A stretch of DNA of 48,315 nucleotides from a virus (taxonomy: Duplodnaviria > Heunggongvirae > Uroviricota > Caudoviricetes): the IMG/VR virus record IMGVR_UViG_2565956711_000009, positions 1 through 48,315 of that record; one strand, given 5' to 3'. The notes below the pieces were generated by a model. That model was not told the DNA's origin. It was given only the letters and a program-made list of their open reading frames with translations, and searched no databases. The translations under genes and the position numbers were made by a program. Of the stretch, positions 3,727 to 40,167 are shown piece after piece (within the stretch, counting starts at the first letter, position 1; each line of letters begins with the position of its first letter).

Positions 3727-6700
3727 CAGAATACTCCTGTCAGTTTTCCAATCTGTACGCGCAGGACGCCGTTAGCATCCCTGATACTGTCAGTAACATT
3801 CGTTGTCTTTCTTGCGCCCTGCCCGTCACTGCCATAGTTTTCCCAGGTGCCACCTTTATCCAGTTTCCATCCAGATTGCCCGGCAACGTAATTGTTGGAC
3901 TGGATAAAGTTACCGATTTTGGCATTGGTGATCGTGCCATCCTGAATAAACGCTGAGCTGATAAAGACCTGTCCATTAACCACAGCGAACGGCGAATACT
4001 GAGTATCACCACTGCCACTCATCAGTACGAACTGGTTAGCGTTGAAACCTACTCGGGTAACAATCGGCTGTCCTGCCTGCGCCAGCACGGCAATCGACAT
4101 CCCGGCGTTATACATGATGCCGTTTACCCTCACGCCTGCTTTGAGGGTATAAATCGCCGAAGCGCCGGAGGCATCAACGACGGCAGTAAGTTTGTCTTCC
4201 AGTGCAGCAGTAACGTCCTCAATCTGCGCCTGTACCTGCGTTGACAGTTCTGCCATTGCCTTATCAACTTCAGCAACTGTAGTTTTAACAACAAGGATAT
4301 CGGCACGCACTTCCCCGTATTGTGCCCACTGATGCTCAGCTGTTCCGTGGTTTGCCAGCGCGTTCTGCATTGCGGCTTCAAGATTGGTATCAATATCGCT
4401 GGTCAGACGGTCGCCGTCGGCAGAGGTTAGGAAATCGTCTGCGATATCGCCAAGATAATCATCGGCGTTATCATTTGACATGCCGCGAACCCAGTCGGTC
4501 CAATCACTCTGATTACCAATGCGGTCAACCAGGCGGGCCCGGTACCAAAATTCAACACCGGCCTTTAAGCCCAGTTGGGTATAGGTGTGTTGTGGATAAG
4601 GAACTCCGGCAAGCAACAGAGGGTTATCACCGTTGCCGTTTACCGAATACTGCAACTCGGTCTGGAGCGTGTCACCTGTATCAATCGGGAAGGACCAGTC
4701 AACCTGTATACCCCAGTTGATTGCAGTGGTACGAAGTCCAATCGGTTTTGGAACTTCACCGGTGCGGCCGGTAAGATGGGTCAACGCAGAGGTGGCCCAA
4801 AGGCTGGACGCTCCCCCAGAGTTAATCGCACGGACGCGCACAAGGTAATCGCCCTCGAAAATGCCAGGCACTTCGATATTTCGCAACCCGGTTTCAGGTA
4901 CGTTTACCCACTCGTTATTTCCACGCTTCCACTGTACCCGGTAGGCTATGACGTCCGACTGCAGTTTGCCGTCTTTATCAACTGGCGCATCCCATGAGGC
5001 GGTTAGTGTGGCCACGCGCTGCCCTTGGCGAACCGCATCATAGCTCGATACCACGATGTTGGTCGGCTGGTTCACGAGCCCGGTTGGAATCAGGCTTGTC
5101 GGCGGCGTATCAAGACGTGCATTGTTATCAACGGCGTCATATTTCGACGCGTTATACTCCGCTCCAGTGATGGTGAAGGTGTTTTCCTCATCATCAAATT
5201 TTAGGTTCGTTACCCTGAAATACTGTAGGCGCAGCTGACCAGCATCAATTACGAACACGGCATTAGGTAACGGCGCCGCCGTGAACGGCGTGGACACGAT
5301 CAGCTGCGTTCCATTTACGGCCTGTATCACCCGGCTTTCAACGGTACCGCCCTGGGTGCGAATCATCAGCGTATCGCCCGCCACCGCACTGGTGCCCCGG
5401 TCAGTGGTCACGGCCTTAAGACCTGCGTTATACCCGGTGATACGCCCGCCGTAAACGCGCCCTGACAGGCGTTCATCTGCAAACGCAAATACGGTGCCCG
5501 GCACGAATACAAAGCCATCAAGTCCAGTCTGAAGCGTGATAATGCGGTCAAGGGAGTTGGAATACACCGCCCACCCGCCACGCCGCTGCGCCTCGCTCTC
5601 ACGCGTACAACCGATCGCAGTGATTTGTGTCTGCTTAAACTTAAACTGCTTCACCAGTTCCGGAAACATCACTGCCGTGGCGCGGTCCTGGTAGTGGTTA
5701 TCCGGATCGCTGAAATTAATCAGCGCGCTGGAGAATCGGTTTTTCTCACTGCCACTCGAGTACACCGGCTTACCCACCACTGATGCGCGAGTGAGAATCT
5801 GCAACTTCGTAGTGTCCGCCGGCATGTCAGAGACAACATTGAACATGTTGTTGCCCCAGAAAGTCATTCCGTTGAAGCCCGCGGCAATATCTTTAATCAC
5901 CTGCCAGGCATCAGCCTGGGACTGGATGTAAACGTCAAACATGAAGCGTGGCTCGGTACCGCTTCCGCCTTTCCCGTCGGGTACCTTCTGGTCGCAGCGC
6001 TGGGCGATGCGATAGAGCTCCCACTTATCTAGCATTTCTGGCATCACGCGGCGCCCAAGACCGAAGCGCGGCTCAGTCAGAACATCGAACCAAATCCACG
6101 CCGGGTTATTCGTCCAGCCCCATTTAAACGTGCCGTCCCATGTTCCGCTATAAGTCCGCGCTATTGGATCATAGTTCGAAGGGATTCGGATGATGCGCCC
6201 CTTCGGCATGCAGGAAATCTTAGGGATGTTGTTGAATGACTTTGCGTTAAAGGACACATACAGCAGCGCGGTGTGTGGATATCGCAGGCGAGCATCGATC
6301 ACCTCAGTAATCGCTTGCACCTGCGTTTTGTTCTGCAGCATCTGGCTGGTGCTGTCATCGGTGTCACGCACCACTCGAATTTGCCATCCAGTACTGGCTT
6401 TGGGAAGATTAATACGGTGAGTTAGTTCATAGAGCGAACTGAGCTTCTCTGTGACGGTTTTAGTCATGACTGTCGAGTAAGCGCCACCGTCCACCGCCAG
6501 ATCAATATGGTACTGAACCGTAGTGCCGACGATATCCCCATCGTTTTCCTGCTGCTGTAACCCAGGGATGCCAATACGAACCAGCACCGCGTCAATCTGG
6601 GTGTTACTCAGTGCGCGGGTCCATGGTGTGGCCTTTGTCAGCGATACGCCAACCGTAGTTTCATTCTCGACTGCAGGGAATCCCGGTATTGGTGTCTGGG

Positions 6701-6935
6701 TCTGTGTGCCAGGCCGGAAATCCCATGACACATTTTCAAAATTCATCGTTCCGTCGGGGTTTCCCAACGGCGTACCGTCCAGGAATATCCGGGTCGCATC
6801 CAGGCCACCAGCAAACTCCCCCTCCCCGAGCGCCAGCAGCATGCGGCAGCGCGCCATTGACTGAGCCGAATCGGGCTGTTCTACAGGTGTGTGCTGCTTC
6901 TGGCTGCCACCCTTTGCACCAGTGATCGCTTCCAT
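3726..6935 (-). CDS. J: Host specificity protein J (central tail fibre / tail tip)
   Basis: About 1069 aa; recalled lambda gpJ similarity (e.g. IPSNYDP..YSGTWDGTFK); start taken at ATG MEAITG, the TTG upstream falls inside a terminator hairpin. Confidence 0.9.
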   Translation of the reverse strand: MEAITGAKGGSQKQHTPVEQPDSAQSMARCRMLLALGEGEFAGGLDATRIFLDGTPLGNPDGTMNFENVSWDFRPGTQTQTPIPGFPAVENETTVGVSLTKATPWTRALSNTQIDAVLVRIGIPGLQQQENDGDIVGTTVQYHIDLAVDGGAYSTVMTKTVTEKLSSLYELTHRINLPKASTGWQIRVVRDTDDSTSQMLQNKTQVQAITEVIDARLRYPHTALLYVSFNAKSFNNIPKISCMPKGRIIRIPSNYDPIARTYSGTWDGTFKWGWTNNPAWIWFDVLTEPRFGLGRRVMPEMLDKWELYRIAQRCDQKVPDGKGGSGTEPRFMFDVYIQSQADAWQVIKDIAAGFNGMTFWGNNMFNVVSDMPADTTKLQILTRASVVGKPVYSSGSEKNRFSSALINFSDPDNHYQDRATAVMFPELVKQFKFKQTQITAIGCTRESEAQRRGGWAVYSNSLDRIITLQTGLDGFVFVPGTVFAFADERLSGRVYGGRITGYNAGLKAVTTDRGTSAVAGDTLMIRTQGGTVESRVIQAVNGTQLIVSTPFTAAPLPNAVFVIDAGQLRLQYFRVTNLKFDDEENTFTITGAEYNASKYDAVDNNARLDTPPTSLIPTGLVNQPTNIVVSSYDAVRQGQRVATLTASWDAPVDKDGKLQSDVIAYRVQWKRGNNEWVNVPETGLRNIEVPGIFEGDYLVRVRAINSGGASSLWATSALTHLTGRTGEVPKPIGLRTTAINWGIQVDWSFPIDTGDTLQTELQYSVNGNGDNPLLLAGVPYPQHTYTQLGLKAGVEFWYRARLVDRIGNQSDWTDWVRGMSNDNADDYLGDIADDFLTSADGDRLTSDIDTNLEAAMQNALANHGTAEHQWAQYGEVRADILVVKTTVAEVDKAMAELSTQVQAQIEDVTAALEDKLTAVVDASGASAIYTLKAGVRVNGIMYNAGMSIAVLAQAGQPIVTRVGFNANQFVLMSGSGDTQYSPFAVVNGQVFISSAFIQDGTITNAKIGNFIQSNNYVAGQSGWKLDKGGTWENYGSDGQGARKTTNVTDSIRDANGVLRVQIGKLTGVF

Positions 6936-6946
6936 ATTACATCCAT

Positions 6947-6970
6947 AAAAAAAAGCACCCAATTGGGTGC
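6947..6970. terminator. Perfect palindromic hairpin with T8 between I and J
   Basis: GCACCCAATTGGGTGC followed on minus strand by TTTTTTTT immediately before J start. Confidence 0.6.
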
Positions 6971-6991
6971 TTGATATTCAGAAAGGAGTTT

Positions 6992-7585
6992 TCAGATGTC
7001 TTCTGCGACTATGCCGGCACTGATGATGGCGCCGCCAACCTCGCGTTCACCATAAAGAAGCGCGACCGGGTTACCCATCGCAAGGGTATTCACCGAGCCA
7101 CCGAAGGCATATGAGGGTTCATTGTCAGGATCGTCTCGCCCCTGTAGTCCTTTGGGCTGGGGCGAAAGCATCTGGTAAATTCCACCAGCCATCATTCCGA
7201 TACCAGCGGAGACCATTCCCGCGCCAATGACACCTGCTGAACCGAACGTCATGCCCGTGACGACGATGCCCGCCACAACCATGACAGCACCCAATATCGT
7301 CTGGAACAAACCAGCTTTTTTTGCCCCTTCCATCACTGGTGCTATGCGAATATCGGTGCTTCCGGCCAGGTTCTTAAAATCATCCGCGCCAATGTTGCGC
7401 CTGCCGCGAAACACCGCGAACGTCATGCCATTCTTTTTGGCGTTCAGAAGATAGCTTTCCAGCCCGTCCAGGTTGATGCAAAGCGCCTTTACCGCCTCAG
7501 CTGATGTCTGCACCGCCAGCCTGTGAACACGGCCAAACCGGGCTCCCAGCACACCGTACAATCGAATCGTGGTTAAACGCGCCAT
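6992..7585 (-). CDS. I: Tail assembly protein I
   Basis: 197-aa ORF with Gly/Ala-rich hydrophobic C-terminal segment; position between K and J. Confidence 0.8.
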   Translation of the reverse strand: MARLTTIRLYGVLGARFGRVHRLAVQTSAEAVKALCINLDGLESYLLNAKKNGMTFAVFRGRRNIGADDFKNLAGSTDIRIAPVMEGAKKAGLFQTILGAVMVVAGIVVTGMTFGSAGVIGAGMVSAGIGMMAGGIYQMLSPQPKGLQGRDDPDNEPSYAFGGSVNTLAMGNPVALLYGEREVGGAIISAGIVAEDI

Positions 7586-35525: not shown

Positions 35526-36068
35526 TCACATAACCCCCAGCATCGATGTCACCATCGTCATCAGCGGCCCTACCTGCTCCGGCATGAGGCGAAACAATGA
35601 CGCTATGCCCTCGCTTACCTCCTTCATTTTCTGGTGCTCAGGCGCGTTCAGGAGAACGGCTTGCTTTGCTTCTGAACATTCCTTCATGGCAGATGCGATC
35701 AGCGACATGGTGTCGTTCTGCGGCGCCAGGCGTGTACGAAACTCAACAGGAAGAACAGCCATGATTGCCGGGGTCAGTTCTCTAACGTTCTCGCGGTACT
35801 GATCGGAGTCGAAGCGGTTATCCAGAAAGCGAAAAAGTTTCTGGCGCGCCCTGCTGATGTCTTCTGGGAAGCTGATGGCGGTACCGCCCTGCTCCCGGTA
35901 TTCGTTGATGATCAGCGCTGACACTACGTCCTGATTGTCCAGGGACGACGACCATGCACGGACCGCATCGCGGATTTTGTCGTGACCTGGCTCCGCCTTA
36001 GGTTGAGCGCGGTTTATCATCGCTCCCGGGTGTATTCCGGTATTGTGTTGATACGCAAGTGAATGCAT
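35526..36068 (-). CDS. CII-position regulatory protein, possibly YdaT-family
   Basis: 180 aa downstream of cro-like gene; family from weak recollection. Confidence 0.4.
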   Translation of the reverse strand: MHSLAYQHNTGIHPGAMINRAQPKAEPGHDKIRDAVRAWSSSLDNQDVVSALIINEYREQGGTAISFPEDISRARQKLFRFLDNRFDSDQYRENVRELTPAIMAVLPVEFRTRLAPQNDTMSLIASAMKECSEAKQAVLLNAPEHQKMKEVSEGIASLFRLMPEQVGPLMTMVTSMLGVM

Positions 36069-36098
36069 TGCTTTCCCTTTCGTGGTTAGGGCCGCCGG

Positions 36099-36344
36099 TC
36101 AGGCGGCTGTCGATTCATTTTTAATTCGGTCAGGGTTTGCAGCCTGTAGTAGCCACTCTGCCGTAAACTGCCCTTTTGATGCGTCAGCCAAAAGCTGTGA
36201 ATAGTTGGTTTTCTCTGTGTACTCAGTGCGAGGCAACGCCGCGTTCTTTACCCACTTGTGAATAGCAACATTCGACAGACCACATAGGCGTGCCGCTGCG
36301 GTTTGTCCGCCTACAGCTTCGATTGCAAATTGCATTGGGTTCAT
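36099..36344 (-). CDS. cro: Cro-like HTH regulator
   Basis: 81 aa with HTH QTAAARLCGLSNVAIHKWVKN; divergent from cI. Confidence 0.7.
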   Translation of the reverse strand: MNPMQFAIEAVGGQTAAARLCGLSNVAIHKWVKNAALPRTEYTEKTNYSQLLADASKGQFTAEWLLQAANPDRIKNESTAA

Positions 36345-36428
36345 AGTGTTTTCCGTTAACTATATTAACTACGAGTTAAGGTTATATCTTAACTGACAGT
36401 TATGTCAACTCTAATTGATAATTAACAC
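36345..36428. promoter_or_regulatory. Immunity region: divergent pR / pRM promoters and operator palindromes
   Basis: Minus strand TTGACA-16-TATAAC (pR); + strand CTGACA-18-GATAAT ending 7 nt before cI ATG; palindrome GTTAAG-N7-CTTAAC at 36375-36393. Confidence 0.6.
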
Positions 36429-37205
36429 ATGGTTAAAAAAGACGATTTAAAAGAAGAATTCTCGAAGAGACTTCGCGCTGCATTGCTTGATGCTGGCGTG
36501 GGTGGGCGTGGGCAGGCTGGCAGGATCAGGGAAGCTATGAAGTCCCAAGGGATTGCTGTATCTGAGCCCGGGATCTGGAAGTGGCTTAACGCATCAGCAA
36601 TACCAGACCAAACCAATATCCTTGCACTTAGCCGCTGGCTTGGGGTTCGCCCTGAGTGGCTGGAATACGGAAGGAATGATCCTGAACCTGAACTGCACAG
36701 GGTATCATCCATCCCGCCTGAATCTGAGTGGGGAACTGTCGACGCTTGGGACAAAAATACCCCCCTACCTGACGATGAGGTGGAAGTACCGTTTCTGAAG
36801 GATATCGAGTTTGCGTGTGGTGATGGACGAGTACACGATGAGGATCACAATGGTTTTAAGCTCAGGTTCTCAAAGGCAACCCTCCGCCGCGTTGGAGCTA
36901 ACACAGATGGGTCTGGCATCCTGTGTTTCCCTGCTACTGGCGACAGCATGGAACCTGTGATACCGGATGGTACGACTGTAGCCGTCGATACGAACAACAA
37001 ACGCATAGTTGATGGGAAACTGTATGCCATTGGTCAGACAGATGGCGGGAATGGTCAACTCAAGCGCATTAAACAGCTGTATCGTAAGCCAGGTGGGAAG
37101 CTGATCATCCGCAGCTACAACAATGAGGCCTACCCTGATGAAGAAGCTGACATTGATGATGTTGAGATAATCGGCCGCCTCTTCTGGTACTCGGTACTGC
37201 TGTAG
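36429..37205 (+). CDS. cI: CI-type repressor (HTH + S24 peptidase domain)
   Basis: 258 aa; N-terminal HTH; C-terminal GDSMEP and LKRI catalytic motifs; no RBS, likely leaderless. Confidence 0.85.
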   Translation: MVKKDDLKEEFSKRLRAALLDAGVGGRGQAGRIREAMKSQGIAVSEPGIWKWLNASAIPDQTNILALSRWLGVRPEWLEYGRNDPEPELHRVSSIPPESEWGTVDAWDKNTPLPDDEVEVPFLKDIEFACGDGRVHDEDHNGFKLRFSKATLRRVGANTDGSGILCFPATGDSMEPVIPDGTTVAVDTNNKRIVDGKLYAIGQTDGGNGQLKRIKQLYRKPGGKLIIRSYNNEAYPDEEADIDDVEIIGRLFWYSVLL

Positions 37206-37321
37206 ATACAAAGCTGCGGCTGGTCTGATCGGCAAGGTGTTTTGGTCGGCGTATAGTTGGTGATTGGCTATGATTTGTCATTTCGATGGCGGCAAATCAA
37301 GCTAAAGCTTAGAATGAAGGT

Positions 37322-37906
37322 ATGAAAATGATTACAGGAATCGAAGCGCTAGCTTTACAGGCTACAGATATCCTTGCAGCCTCCAGGGCGGCGCAGCAAA
37401 TAGTTTCCCCACTTGCCAGAGCTAACTCGAGACTGGCACAGTCTGCCATGCCTGAAAATCCTGATGAAGTTAAGCACGCCTTAGATCGTGCCTCTATTGC
37501 GATTGCAGGTGTAGAGCGCAAATTAGTTGAGTGCAATGAAATAGTTAATTCATTAAACACACTTTCTGATGAAGATCTTCATTTCACCAATGAGTTTCTC
37601 ATTGAATTAAAGGTTAGGGCTGAAATGCTGACTGGGCACATAGAGAATTTACGCGATGTGTTTTCTCTAGTTGAAACGTCGAGCGCTTGGAAGCCTTACA
37701 TGCCATTGGTTTATGAAAAAAAACGCAAAGCAATTCGCTCTGTTTCTGATCTGCGAAATGCATATCTAAACATTGCTCTCCTGGCAGAGCAATTTGTCTC
37801 ACCCGTGCCGACCGTAAGCAGTAGTGTTGAGGGTAACTCAGAGGAATTTTCATCTGCACTCTCCGCATCACGCCAGCTGCTAAAAATCGGCTCGGAGTGG
37901 AGATAA
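37322..37906 (+). CDS. Unknown helical protein, first gene of cI-linked accessory operon
   Basis: 194 aa, no TM segments or recognised motifs; same strand as cI; stop overlaps next start (TAATG). Confidence 0.6.
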   Translation: MKMITGIEALALQATDILAASRAAQQIVSPLARANSRLAQSAMPENPDEVKHALDRASIAIAGVERKLVECNEIVNSLNTLSDEDLHFTNEFLIELKVRAEMLTGHIENLRDVFSLVETSSAWKPYMPLVYEKKRKAIRSVSDLRNAYLNIALLAEQFVSPVPTVSSSVEGNSEEFSSALSASRQLLKIGSEWR

Positions 37907-38316
37907 TGGCAAGAGTTAGTATCCATTCATCATTAAATAATTCGGCGTTTATACAAGGGCTTGCCAGAGAACTATCTCTTTATCTTAACGGCATCTCTTT
38001 ATCCGGACGCCTTGGAAGAAATGGCGGCTTTGAACGTAATAATTCAGCGCAAACATCCGGCATCCTCAAAATCCACTTCAAAGCACCAGGAGAAGGTTTT
38101 TGGACTGATGCTATGCGACAATCAACCAGAACGAGCAATAACTACATAGTATATGCGCGTCACTGGGATAAGGCTGATGCATTTCAAATCATCGCTGTGA
38201 TTGCACCAGACGCTCACGAAACGGCTGACGCACTCCTGCCCAGGATTATTGATATTACGGAACAAGATTTTCACTCGCTAAGTGAGAGTCAAATAGATCG
38301 CCTAGAACATTATTAA
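37906..38316 (+). CDS. Unknown protein with YoeB/RelE-like toxin-fold motifs
   Basis: 136 aa; segment KAPGEGFWTD...NNYIVYARHWDKADAFQIIAVIAPDAHE resembles recalled YoeB GFWSRRITEEHRLVYAV...LLIAACRYHY; unverified. Confidence 0.55.
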   Translation: MARVSIHSSLNNSAFIQGLARELSLYLNGISLSGRLGRNGGFERNNSAQTSGILKIHFKAPGEGFWTDAMRQSTRTSNNYIVYARHWDKADAFQIIAVIAPDAHETADALLPRIIDITEQDFHSLSESQIDRLEHY

Positions 38317-38340
38317 CCCGGCCACCGCGCCGGGTTTTTT
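38317..38340 (+). terminator. Rho-independent terminator ending the cI accessory operon
   Basis: CCCGGC-caccgc-GCCGGG followed by T6. Confidence 0.8.
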
Positions 38341-38344
38341 GTGC

Positions 38345-38554
38345 CTACTTCACAGCTTTACTACCCTTCCTGACTATCTCCGCCGCATCCCTGTTCACCC
38401 CCTTCCCTATCACGTTTCCCGTTTCCTTCCGGTACCGTTCCAGCTTGTCGATGATGTTTTGCTGGGTCATAGGTAAATCTGCCAGTGACAACTCCATGAC
38501 CGCCCGCCCCATGGCGTGAACCATCATGTTCACTCTTTCTTCATCCAAGTCCAT
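38345..38554 (-). CDS. Small hypothetical protein convergent with the cI operon
   Basis: 69 aa; strong AAGGAG RBS. Confidence 0.5.
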   Translation of the reverse strand: MDLDEERVNMMVHAMGRAVMELSLADLPMTQQNIIDKLERYRKETGNVIGKGVNRDAAEIVRKGSKAVK

Positions 38555-38620
38555 TACCCACTCCTTTTTGATGTTTTTTTCAGCATATCACGTGCCAAGC
38601 AAATCCATAACAAAACTAAA

Positions 38621-38705
38621 TTAACCAATAAATCATAACCTTAATAACCAACACAGAAATAATTAACCATTGGTTATTGACTGAAAATAACCATTAGTTA
38701 ATAAT
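38621..38705 (+). promoter_or_regulatory. pL-like early-left promoter with TAACC repeats and palindromic operator-like sites
   Basis: TTGACT(38677-38682)-17-AATAAT(38700-38705); palindromes TAACCA-T-TGGTTA (38664-38676) and TAACCA-T-TAGTTA (38688-38700); five same-orientation TAACC copies. Confidence 0.5.
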
Positions 38706-38751
38706 CAATCCATCGAAACGAAACATCGACAGCTGAGCGAAGTTAGCCAGC

Positions 38752-38782
38752 GGCGGACAGCAAGTCGCCTGCTTTTTAACAA
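38752..38782 (+). promoter_or_regulatory. Leader hairpin followed by rrn-type boxA-like element
   Basis: Hairpin GGCGGAC-agcaa-GTCGCC then TGCTTTTTAACAA (one mismatch to rrn boxA TGCTCTTTAACAA). Confidence 0.4.
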
Positions 38783-39006
38783 CATGCAAAGTCGGAACAG
38801 CACTCAGTAATCCTGTTTAGACCCCAACGTACAAATTCGGCGCAGCACCGGGCGCGATCCGGTCGGTGTGAGGCTACCACCTCGCGAGAGCGATAAAGGC
38901 GTGGGAACGGGCAACACTGGCGGGATGAGAGGTGCGAAGCGCAAACAGATTTATTCCAGTCCATTCGAAGTTGAGTGGGCTGGGCTGAATCACAAGAGGA
39001 TTTTTT

Positions 39007-39219
39007 ATGACTCAGACATACATTCCGGCGTGTTTAAGAGACCTTCCTAAGAAGCGTCAGAAGCCACGCAAACAGGCGATTAAAGAAGCGCAAGTGGAAG
39101 TTCTGAATAAGGCAATCGCATCGATAAAAGACGATATGCGTGCGTTCAAAACAGAAGAGCAGCGTCGCGGTCATTACCAGGCGATCAGCACACTCTCACA
39201 GATTCGTGATGAGTTGTAG
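39007..39219 (+). CDS. Small basic protein, first gene of early-left operon
   Basis: 70 aa with basic patch KKRQKPRKQ; AAGAGGA RBS. Confidence 0.5.
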   Translation: MTQTYIPACLRDLPKKRQKPRKQAIKEAQVEVLNKAIASIKDDMRAFKTEEQRRGHYQAISTLSQIRDEL

Positions 39220-39244
39220 AAGCTGATAGATAAAGCATTTCTCC

Positions 39245-39260
39245 CGCATCAGCGGGTAAC
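39245..39260 (+). repeat. Conserved intercistronic stem-loop 16-mer, copy 1
   Basis: CGCATCAGCGGGTAAC forming CCCGC-auca-GCGGG, upstream of next start codon. Confidence 0.6.
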
Positions 39261-39276
39261 TAAGTGGAGAGTACGT

Positions 39277-39465
39277 ATGCACAAGTGTCAATTCTGTGGG
39301 TACTTTCTGGCATCTGAAGAGATGCAGAGAATATCTGTAAACATGGTTGGCAGGCCTTACAACATCTGCATTCCATGCTCAGAAAAGTACAAAAAGAAAG
39401 GCCTGTGGGATTCGGCAAAAAACGATATCGACTGGAAATCACTTCCATGCGTCGATGAGACATAA
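39277..39465 (+). CDS. Small zinc-ribbon protein
   Basis: 62 aa with CQFC...CIPC. Confidence 0.5.
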   Translation: MHKCQFCGYFLASEEMQRISVNMVGRPYNICIPCSEKYKKKGLWDSAKNDIDWKSLPCVDET

Positions 39466-39466
39466 C

Positions 39467-39482
39467 CGCATCAGCGGGTAAC
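39467..39482 (+). repeat. Conserved intercistronic stem-loop 16-mer, copy 2
   Basis: Identical CGCATCAGCGGGTAAC 222 bp after copy 1. Confidence 0.6.
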
Positions 39483-39498
39483 GACAGAGGGTAAGTCA

Positions 39499-40167
39499 AT
39501 GATTCGTCTTAACAACGAAATTAAAAATCAGCTATGCCATAACCTGCTTCTCGCATCCCCATTGTTTGAGAAAGCGAAAGCTGCGGTTAATGAGAGGGCG
39601 AAAATTGTTGAAGAAATTCGACAGGCATTGCTCAAGCAGGAAAACACTAGCGATGAGCAAATAACTAAGGCTCGGGAAGATTTCAAAGATAACTCCTTCA
39701 TCAAGATGCAGGTCGGCGCTAAAACTGCAACTTTAAAGGTCATTATTAATGGTGAGTATCACGAATTAGCCAGGAACGGTTTGGATCATCGCTATCGCCA
39801 CCGTGGAAAACATATTGGTAAGCACGATCTTGAAAGCGACCTGTTCTTCGGAGCTTCCTTCGCGCCTGTAATTGATTCGGGTTTCGTTCCTGAAAGTTAC
39901 AGCACGCTGAAGAAAGTTGGAAAATTACACGACCGACTCACTGAATCGACGGTAACCATCAACGTTCTTTACGATGAAGTTGATGCCTTCCAATTGCAGG
40001 TTAAAGGTGCTCTAACCAAAGTCTCAACTGTTAAAAAACTGGCTGAGATGTGGCCTGAGGCAGTGCCATATTTGCCTGAGGTGGAACGCCGTGAAGCGAC
40101 CAGCACCGCACTTGCCATTCCCGTTGAAACGCTAAACGCCCTTTGCGGCATACCAAAGAATGAATGA
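39499..40167 (+). CDS. Hypothetical protein, unknown function
   Basis: 222 aa; GAGGG RBS; followed by terminator. Confidence 0.55.
   Translation: MIRLNNEIKNQLCHNLLLASPLFEKAKAAVNERAKIVEEIRQALLKQENTSDEQITKAREDFKDNSFIKMQVGAKTATLKVIINGEYHELARNGLDHRYRHRGKHIGKHDLESDLFFGASFAPVIDSGFVPESYSTLKKVGKLHDRLTESTVTINVLYDEVDAFQLQVKGALTKVSTVKKLAEMWPEAVPYLPEVERREATSTALAIPVETLNALCGIPKNE

Follow-up and report, generated by a model that had tools for sequence, protein, structure and literature searches.

In the stretch of tailed-phage DNA analyzed here (Caudoviricetes; IMG/VR record IMGVR_UViG_2565956711_000009, positions 1 to 48,315, hereafter the window of 48,315 nucleotides), two translationally coupled genes, designated orfA and orfB, occupy the rexAB slot inside the OR-OL immunity region of a phi80/HK225-like prophage. 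We favor, with moderate confidence, the reading that these genes form a mobile type II toxin-antitoxin (TA) cassette, carried as a moron in the rexAB slot and most likely used by the lysogen for exclusion. Two parts of this reading differ in strength: it is highly probable that orfA-orfB is a TA pair with OrfA as the antitoxin, and we put a role in phage defense at somewhat less than an even chance. The type II reading with OrfA as the antidote is drawn from gene order, translational coupling, co-inheritance of the two genes, faster divergence of the antitoxin, and loss of the toxin first. Because the toxin family is known and the partner family is not, the pair would constitute a YafO type II system with a novel partner.

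OrfB and the YafO toxin family

OrfB matched the Pfam model of YafO toxins (PF13957, YafO_toxin) at 59.8 bits against a cut-off of 25 (E = 2.9e-16, model positions 12-98 of 101), and the same domain was present in 19 of 19 close homologs. The protein also matched phrog_1651, and an identical protein has been named "type II toxin-antitoxin system YafO family toxin" by the Prokaryotic Genome Annotation Pipeline (PGAP). In a multiple alignment with E. coli YafO, to which OrfB has a global identity of 22%, the invariant columns were F42, E43, R44, H57, Q72, R75, Y83, P101, H104, and E119. Judged by its sequence, OrfB belongs to the YafO toxin family within the RelE/ParE superfamily, where we would place it in a separate YafO subfamily rather than regard it as a YafO ortholog. 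YafO is one of 13 Pfam families of RelE/ParE-superfamily toxins with the BECR fold, which are encoded in antitoxin-toxin gene order, and it is listed among the mRNases of that fold (PMC11980606); the ribosome dependence of E. coli YafO has been disputed (PMC8546651).

The predicted structure of OrfB had a RelE-like fold, with HigB, YafQ, RelE, and YoeB as its best neighbors and YoeB among the weaker of these. Compared with the solved structures of HigB2, HigB, YafQ, RelE, and YoeB, the OrfB model is larger, with extra C-terminal helices at residues 101-122 and 127-131. The original prediction, which was made from the DNA sequence alone, had described OrfB as a YoeB/RelE-like protein behind an N-terminal extension of roughly 50 residues. 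The likeness held at the level of the superfamily (predicted structure, BECR fold), but membership in the YoeB/RelE family was rejected in favor of YafO, given the match to PF13957, the lack of any Pfam match to the YoeB, RelE, or HigB models, and the lack of a sequence match between the OrfB family and any chain in the Protein Data Bank (PDB). The proposed extension did not survive, as the alignment of E. coli YafO (132 amino acids, aa) with OrfB begins near residue 1, and the strand and helix at the N-terminus lie within the fold; the region is a normal part of the 132- to 136-aa YafO domain.

The YafN-YafO pair, encoded in the dinB operon of E. coli K-12, resembles orfA-orfB in that its toxin falls within PF13957 and is of similar length (132 aa, compared with 136 aa for OrfB), shares the F-E-R, H, Q..R, Y, and P..H residues, and is encoded after its antitoxin with coupled translation. 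The systems differ in the antitoxin, YafN being a 97-aa protein of the Phd/YefM type whereas OrfA is predicted to be a 192-aa helical bundle without detectable similarity to it, and in their setting, as yafO is part of an SOS operon whereas orfB is phage-borne. To our knowledge, YafO is among the least understood toxins of the RelE superfamily, and YafN is its sole characterized partner.

OrfA, the putative antitoxin

Neither OrfA itself nor any of 14 diverse family members, each used as a query, matched an entry in Pfam, NCBIfam, PADLOC, or the PDB sequences. BLASTP against YafN aligned only 15 residues (E = 0.19), and there was no match to the Phd/YefM Pfam family. When 1.84 billion representative proteins were searched with a profile, only 14 matched, and word-indexed searches returned 27 and 40 clusters, every one of them labeled "hypothetical". 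Close copies were absent from 50,697 phage records (tblastn, E = 1e-3), and were found at only six IMG/VR loci. We consider OrfA to define a previously undescribed protein family, all members of which are acidic (isoelectric point, pI, of 4.5-6.0).

The AlphaFold2 model of OrfA (predicted local distance difference test score, pLDDT, of 81) is all-alpha, with helices at residues 5-14, 17-40, 47-80, 90-119, and 121-159, followed by a conserved stretch modeled with low confidence (residues 160-172) and a C-terminal helix (173-188). The most conserved parts of the family were W123-x-P125, L144-RNAYLNIA-152, the alternating pattern P163-x-V-x-S-x-V-x-G171, and the C-terminal S183...W193. A segment that is invariant in sequence yet predicted to be disordered in the monomer is what we would expect if that segment takes up its structure on the partner protein.

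Pairing, divergence, and decay

At every locus examined (about 15), an OrfA homolog (187-201 aa) lay directly upstream of a PF13957 gene (136-151 aa), and the stop and start codons of the two genes overlapped or were 1-2 nt apart. This pairing, which supports the earlier reading of the two genes as one unit, extended to OrfA relatives with only ~17-30% identity. Over 11 loci, the pairwise identities of the A and B proteins were closely correlated (r = 0.94), with A diverging faster than B (22-30% versus 36-41% identity at the longest distances).

Decay of the pair is one-sided, with the toxin lost first. In three Photorhabdus genomes (L004-L006, positions 6591-6999), the YafO-like gene was frameshifted (77 + 63 or 42 aa) and the OrfA homolog was intact; the locus is flanked by genes for a type I restriction enzyme and a SNIPE/T5orf172 nuclease. 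In the tail module of a Salmonella myovirus-type prophage (L031/L032, positions 5001-5462), a truncated 153-aa OrfA remnant was retained and the toxin gene had been deleted without trace. This remnant-bearing lineage was present on at least 14 contigs, and a sister prophage (L013, positions 5414-6411) keeps an intact pair at the same site. The converse state, B without A, was seen at none of the loci examined.

The pair recurred in diverse settings. In Salmonella lambdoid prophages, it occupied the same slot as in the window, behind a different, 128-aa helix-turn-helix (HTH) repressor, and in a Klebsiella lambdoid prophage it was found in the nin region. Tail-associated copies were located in myovirus-type tail modules of Pantoea and Salmonella, in a tail module of Leclercia, and between the tape-measure and distal tail genes of siphovirus Tbat2_3. 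In Photorhabdus, genes for a type I restriction enzyme and a SNIPE nuclease lay close to the pair. Chromosomal copies without phage genes nearby were found in Chania, between cysE and the gene for an AraC regulator, and, for a distant pair, in a draft genome assembly (L016); a further distant pair (L017) came from a metagenome. The original prediction had tied the pair to immunity regions, and this was correct for the rex slot here and in Salmonella but too narrow, as the tail modules, nin region, and chromosomal islands demonstrate.

In the P22-like phage CUS-3, the pair (ECRS218_0007/0008) lies downstream of mnt, which encodes another lysogen-expressed repressor, at what we take to be the position where P22 carries sieA. 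The 199-aa CUS-3 protein is homologous to the OrfA family (hhalign probability of 99.6%, E = 1e-23), and its 139-aa neighbor is a PF13957 protein; the PHROG families phrog_1651 / phrog_18235 likewise represent homologous pairs. Identity to the window pair was only 23% (A) and 41% (B). As the CUS-3 genes are annotated as hypothetical or of unknown function, they widen the distribution of the pair without adding functional knowledge.

A Klebsiella phage-plasmid (GArcari-2022b, an unannotated record; L030, positions 1896-2830) encoded a more distant PF13957 toxin (84.9 bits) with an overlapping 175-aa open reading frame (ORF) upstream. This upstream protein showed no detectable homology to OrfA (hhalign probability of 0.1%) and belonged to no Pfam family. 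The OrfA family is therefore not the sole long partner of YafO-like toxins; the 175-aa ORF may represent a third kind of partner, pointing to several partners other than YafN among the YafO-like toxins of mobile elements.

Location and boundaries of the cassette

The early region of a lambdoid prophage is inverted in the window, with genes for a P-like protein, an O-like protein, a YdaT-domain CII analog, and Cro all on the minus strand, followed by cI on the plus strand (Table 1). The annotated phi80 map has the order OR/pRM - cI - cargo - OL/pL - N, and the window is syntenic with it. Since cI lies to the left of orfA-orfB and a phi80-like OL/pL lies to the right, closing the region, the pair is inside the immunity region. 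The position downstream of cI that had been proposed from the sequence was thus corroborated, by phi80 synteny, operator-like palindromes, and the pL-like promoter at 38664-38705. The description of the genes as a coupled unit ended by a strong terminator also proved accurate, the reading frames, the TAATG overlap of the orfA stop and orfB start (GAGATAATGG at 37899-37908), and a hairpin with a T run all being present.

Table 1. Features of the orfA-orfB cassette and of the surrounding immunity region (positions in the window)
Feature	Position	Strand	Description
pRM-like promoter	36393-36422	+	CTGACA-18-GATAAT, ends 6 nt before the cI ATG; from consensus scan; position corresponds to annotated phi80 pRM
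cI repressor, 258 aa	36429-37205	+	Pfam Peptidase_S24 C-terminal domain, E = 7e-16; phrog_4 transcriptional repressor; context, outside the cassette
Spacer between cI and cassette	37206-37280	+	Unique to this phage; weak hairpin 37219-37233; weak promoter-like site 37229-37257
Mobile cassette	37281-38348	+	47-bp leader with Shine-Dalgarno, orfA, orfB, and terminator; from blastn junction mapping and composition
orfA, putative antitoxin	37328-37906	+	192 aa, pI 5.3; 194 aa if counted from ATG 37322
orfB, putative YafO-family toxin	37906-38316	+	136 aa from ATG; predicted RelE/ParE (BECR) fold
Intrinsic terminator	38315-38342	+	AACCCGGCC-ACCGCG-CCGGGTT then TTTTTTG; 8-bp stem (38315-38336) with 6 GC pairs, T run
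Convergent gene, 69 aa	38345-38554	-	phrog_3975; phi80-type backbone, outside the cassette
OL/pL	38664-38705	+	13-bp palindromes TAACCATTGGTTA and TAACCATTAGTTA overlapping TTGACT-17-AATAAT promoter; matches annotated phi80 OL/pL

The segment 37322-38554 was found at 100% identity in prophages of 9 of 5,426 complete E. coli genomes. The flanks of the cassette are phi80/HK225-like, and blastn junction mapping revealed that homology to these phages ends at the 3' end of cI (37200/37205) and returns at the terminator (38312/38313). Between these points, phi80 carries gene 40A, which encodes a DUF7946/DUF7947 protein, and HK225 carries genes like those for HK97 gp48/gp49. A 28-bp terminator (38312-38339) was kept in phi80, HK225, and the Salmonella prophage irrespective of the cargo. 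Given three unrelated cargos in three related phages and this conserved element, the terminator looks like the right-hand recombination joint of the slot, and the interval between the cI 3' end and the terminator has the features of a classic moron-exchange hotspot. The cassette itself is common to the Salmonella lambdoid prophage with the different repressor, at 81% DNA identity, and the same terminator was observed 3' of the pair in that phage as well. The cassette has a GC content of 44%, compared with 52% for the phage. Its lower GC, interchangeability with other slot cargo, and presence in lysogen-expressed or moron slots of unrelated phages mark it as a mobile moron.

For orfA, nearly all homologs use the second methionine (MITG..., 192-193 aa), and the spacing of the GAAGG Shine-Dalgarno sequence fits ATG 37328 better than ATG 37322. 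The orfB reading frame extends to GTG 37897 (139 aa), but homologs favor ATG 37906. Ratios of nonsynonymous to synonymous substitution (dN/dS) relative to the Salmonella copy were 0.084 for orfA and 0.060 for orfB (about 0.07 for the pair), and we conclude from these values that both are real genes under strong purifying selection. An Rfam scan of 36000-39600 returned nothing at E <= 1, and an RNA component (a type I or III antitoxin, or a riboswitch) was rejected on this ground. A search for a module-specific promoter or operator in the upstream regions of seven contexts found that these have no more than ~20-47 bp in common, with the Shine-Dalgarno sequence inside that stretch. Upstream of the pair, a small AAGCT..AGCTT inverted repeat was kept only in the closest copies.

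Lambda RexAB offers the obvious positional parallel, as it too consists of two genes downstream of cI in the immunity region, with a terminator before OL and, presumably, the same expression logic. There is, however, no similarity in sequence or architecture. RexB is a polytopic membrane protein. OrfA and OrfB appear soluble, with no transmembrane-like segment in either (maximum Kyte-Doolittle 19-residue scores of 1.19 and 0.93, respectively), and neither matches a Rex or Sie family in Pfam or PHROG; on both points, solubility and the lack of resemblance to RexA/RexB or SieB, the initial description was right. The effector here is also predicted to be a toxin with a nuclease fold, not an ion channel.

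Neighboring genes and operators

The conserved 69-aa gene, which runs toward the cI transcript from the opposite strand, occupies the interval from the immunity-region terminator to OL. It had been suggested as a possible member of the module, a proposal that we dismiss on three grounds: its product is 100% identical in phi80, whose cargo is gene 40A rather than orfA-orfB; the gene was absent beside the pair in every other context examined; and its Salmonella analog is unrelated. Small convergent genes occur at the same position in HK225 and in the Salmonella lambdoid prophage, the latter unrelated in sequence. The complete-genome record of phi80 (JX871397) leaves the 69-aa gene unannotated.

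Operator-like palindromes with TTAAC/GTTAA half-sites (TAACCATTGGTTA, TAACCATTAGTTA, TAACACATGGTTA) flank the immunity region (36345-36435 and 38664-38700), one overlapping the start codon of cI. At the DNA level, the N-terminal part of cI (36429-36709) shares no homology with phi80 or HK225, and the C-terminal half is 76-94% identical, HK225 cI accounting for the 94%. A divergent N-terminal part joined to a matching C-terminal half points to an immunity specificity distinct from that of phi80 and HK225, on a backbone common to all three.

The gene at the cII position (35526-36068, minus strand) encodes a 180-aa YdaT-domain protein that PGAP labels 'toxin YdaT domain-containing protein'. Its phi80 counterpart is annotated as CII, and the 'toxin' label is probably misleading, the protein being by position a CII analog. 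The first gene past pL (39007-39219, plus strand) encodes a 70-aa phrog_5305 protein homologous to HK225_041. As this protein is not recognizably related to the phi80 N protein, this phage has no obvious antitermination factor.

Proposed function and competing explanations

We propose that a cassette of ~1.07 kb was inserted as a moron into the rexAB slot of a phi80/HK225-like prophage. In the lysogen, the pRM transcript would read through cI into orfA-orfB and stop at 38315-38342. OrfA, made first from the translationally coupled message, would most likely neutralize OrfB by direct binding, probably through its C-terminal region (the helix with LRNAYLNIA, the PxVxSxVxG stretch, and the last helix, which ends in W). 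Free OrfB, acting as an endoribonuclease, would cleave mRNA and halt translation. In a lysogen, OrfA would most likely be depleted when a superinfecting phage switches off the genes of host and prophage, and the release of OrfB would then trigger abortive infection. A lysogen-expressed exclusion slot, together with the absence of any matching catalogued system, makes the cassette a cheap and well-defined candidate for defense by abortive infection.

Several observations weigh against this reading. OrfB scored only 22.5 bits against the NCBIfam YafO equivalog model (PRK09885), for which the cut-off is 153, and BLASTP aligned it with E. coli YafO over only 39 residues at ~31% identity; being far below the equivalog cut-off and this distant, OrfB could differ from YafO in activity. 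No strong terminator was present in the 116- to 122-nt spacer between cI and orfA, and this absence is the sole argument for the presumed co-transcription with cI. The spacer also contains a hairpin and a promoter-like site, both weak. No model in PADLOC-DB v2.0.0 matched OrfA or OrfB, and searches with family members yielded only isolated matches at chance level.

The strongest competing explanation, which we nonetheless judge unlikely, is that the same TA pair is purely an addiction or stabilization module, where the labile antitoxin would be lost with the element and the stable toxin would arrest the cell, with no protection from phages. Phd-Doc of P1 is the classic precedent for such addiction, and the occurrence of orfA-orfB at chromosomal sites without nearby phage genes (next to cysE and the AraC regulator gene in Chania, and in L016) is consistent with it, as is the spread over many different prophage positions expected of a selfish, self-stabilizing cassette. 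However, post-segregational killing would gain an integrated prophage little, since such an element is seldom lost by segregation, and the recurrence in exclusion slots (rex and the mnt position) and beside restriction and SNIPE genes fits defense better. Addiction and defense are, moreover, not mutually exclusive.

The size and fold predicted for OrfA may leave room for an additional sensing role. Going further, we tentatively entertain, as a possibility less expected than defense itself, that OrfA, instead of being a passive antidote, senses phage through its large helical domain and that the pair is a distinct, uncatalogued abortive-infection system, which temperate phages carry in their exclusion and moron slots. 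A different proposal, to which we give little credence, is that OrfA is no mere antidote but a sensor or regulator that recognizes a phage product and controls the release or activation of the YafO-like nuclease, in the manner of a RexA/RexB-like two-component system or an antitoxin-sensor fusion. OrfA has roughly double the length of YafN (97 aa) and of most antitoxins of type II, and its helical bundle of ~155 residues, which is modeled as well folded, has no obvious neutralizing or DNA-binding purpose. The family is also strictly tied to YafO toxins and concentrated in temperate phages, and its N-terminal bundle diverges faster than the toxin, as would be expected in an arms race. On the other hand, OrfA resembles no known sensor domain, a plain antitoxin already explains the gene order, translational coupling, acidity, and toxin-first decay, and the sensor idea overlaps the TA-cassette reading that we favor instead of excluding it.

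It is very improbable that OrfB is a catalytically altered RelE-fold protein, directed at another target or non-toxic, and that the pair has some other lysogenic-conversion function: OrfB is distant from E. coli YafO and falls below the NCBIfam equivalog threshold, the RelE/ParE fold includes non-RNases such as the gyrase poison ParE (PMC11980606), and it is disputed whether E. coli YafO itself needs the ribosome to act (PMC8546651), but the whole subfamily shows no variation in the polar and charged residues that it has in common with E. coli YafO, purifying selection is strong, and repeated inactivation or loss of B with A kept is what would be expected if unguarded B were harmful.

Implications for YafO toxins and temperate phages

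The identity of the toxin was already known, being present in automated annotation. What is new is the family of the antitoxin, the strictness with which it is partnered with YafO-like toxins, the concentration of the pair in moron or exclusion slots of temperate phages, and its candidacy for a role in defense. A 2011 census described a YafO super-family with Phd-type and unclassified "guilt-by-association" partners, none of them on phages or plasmids (PMC3141249); in contrast, the entire YafO-family branch considered here is phage-borne. The phi80-type slot is itself a clear hotspot of cargo exchange, with three cargos in three related phages.

Should orfA-orfB be only an ordinary addiction module, the outcome would be the modest one of a new antitoxin family. 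A yafO-like gene has been reported in the Salmonella prophage mTmII, which reduces sensitivity to typing phages through a mechanism not yet explained (PMC9836087). A sensing abortive-infection system, if true, may also explain prophage-conferred resistance such as that of mTmII, should the yafO-like gene there belong to this pair. More broadly, such a system would represent a new antitoxin/sensor family and would give the poorly understood YafO toxins a defined role.

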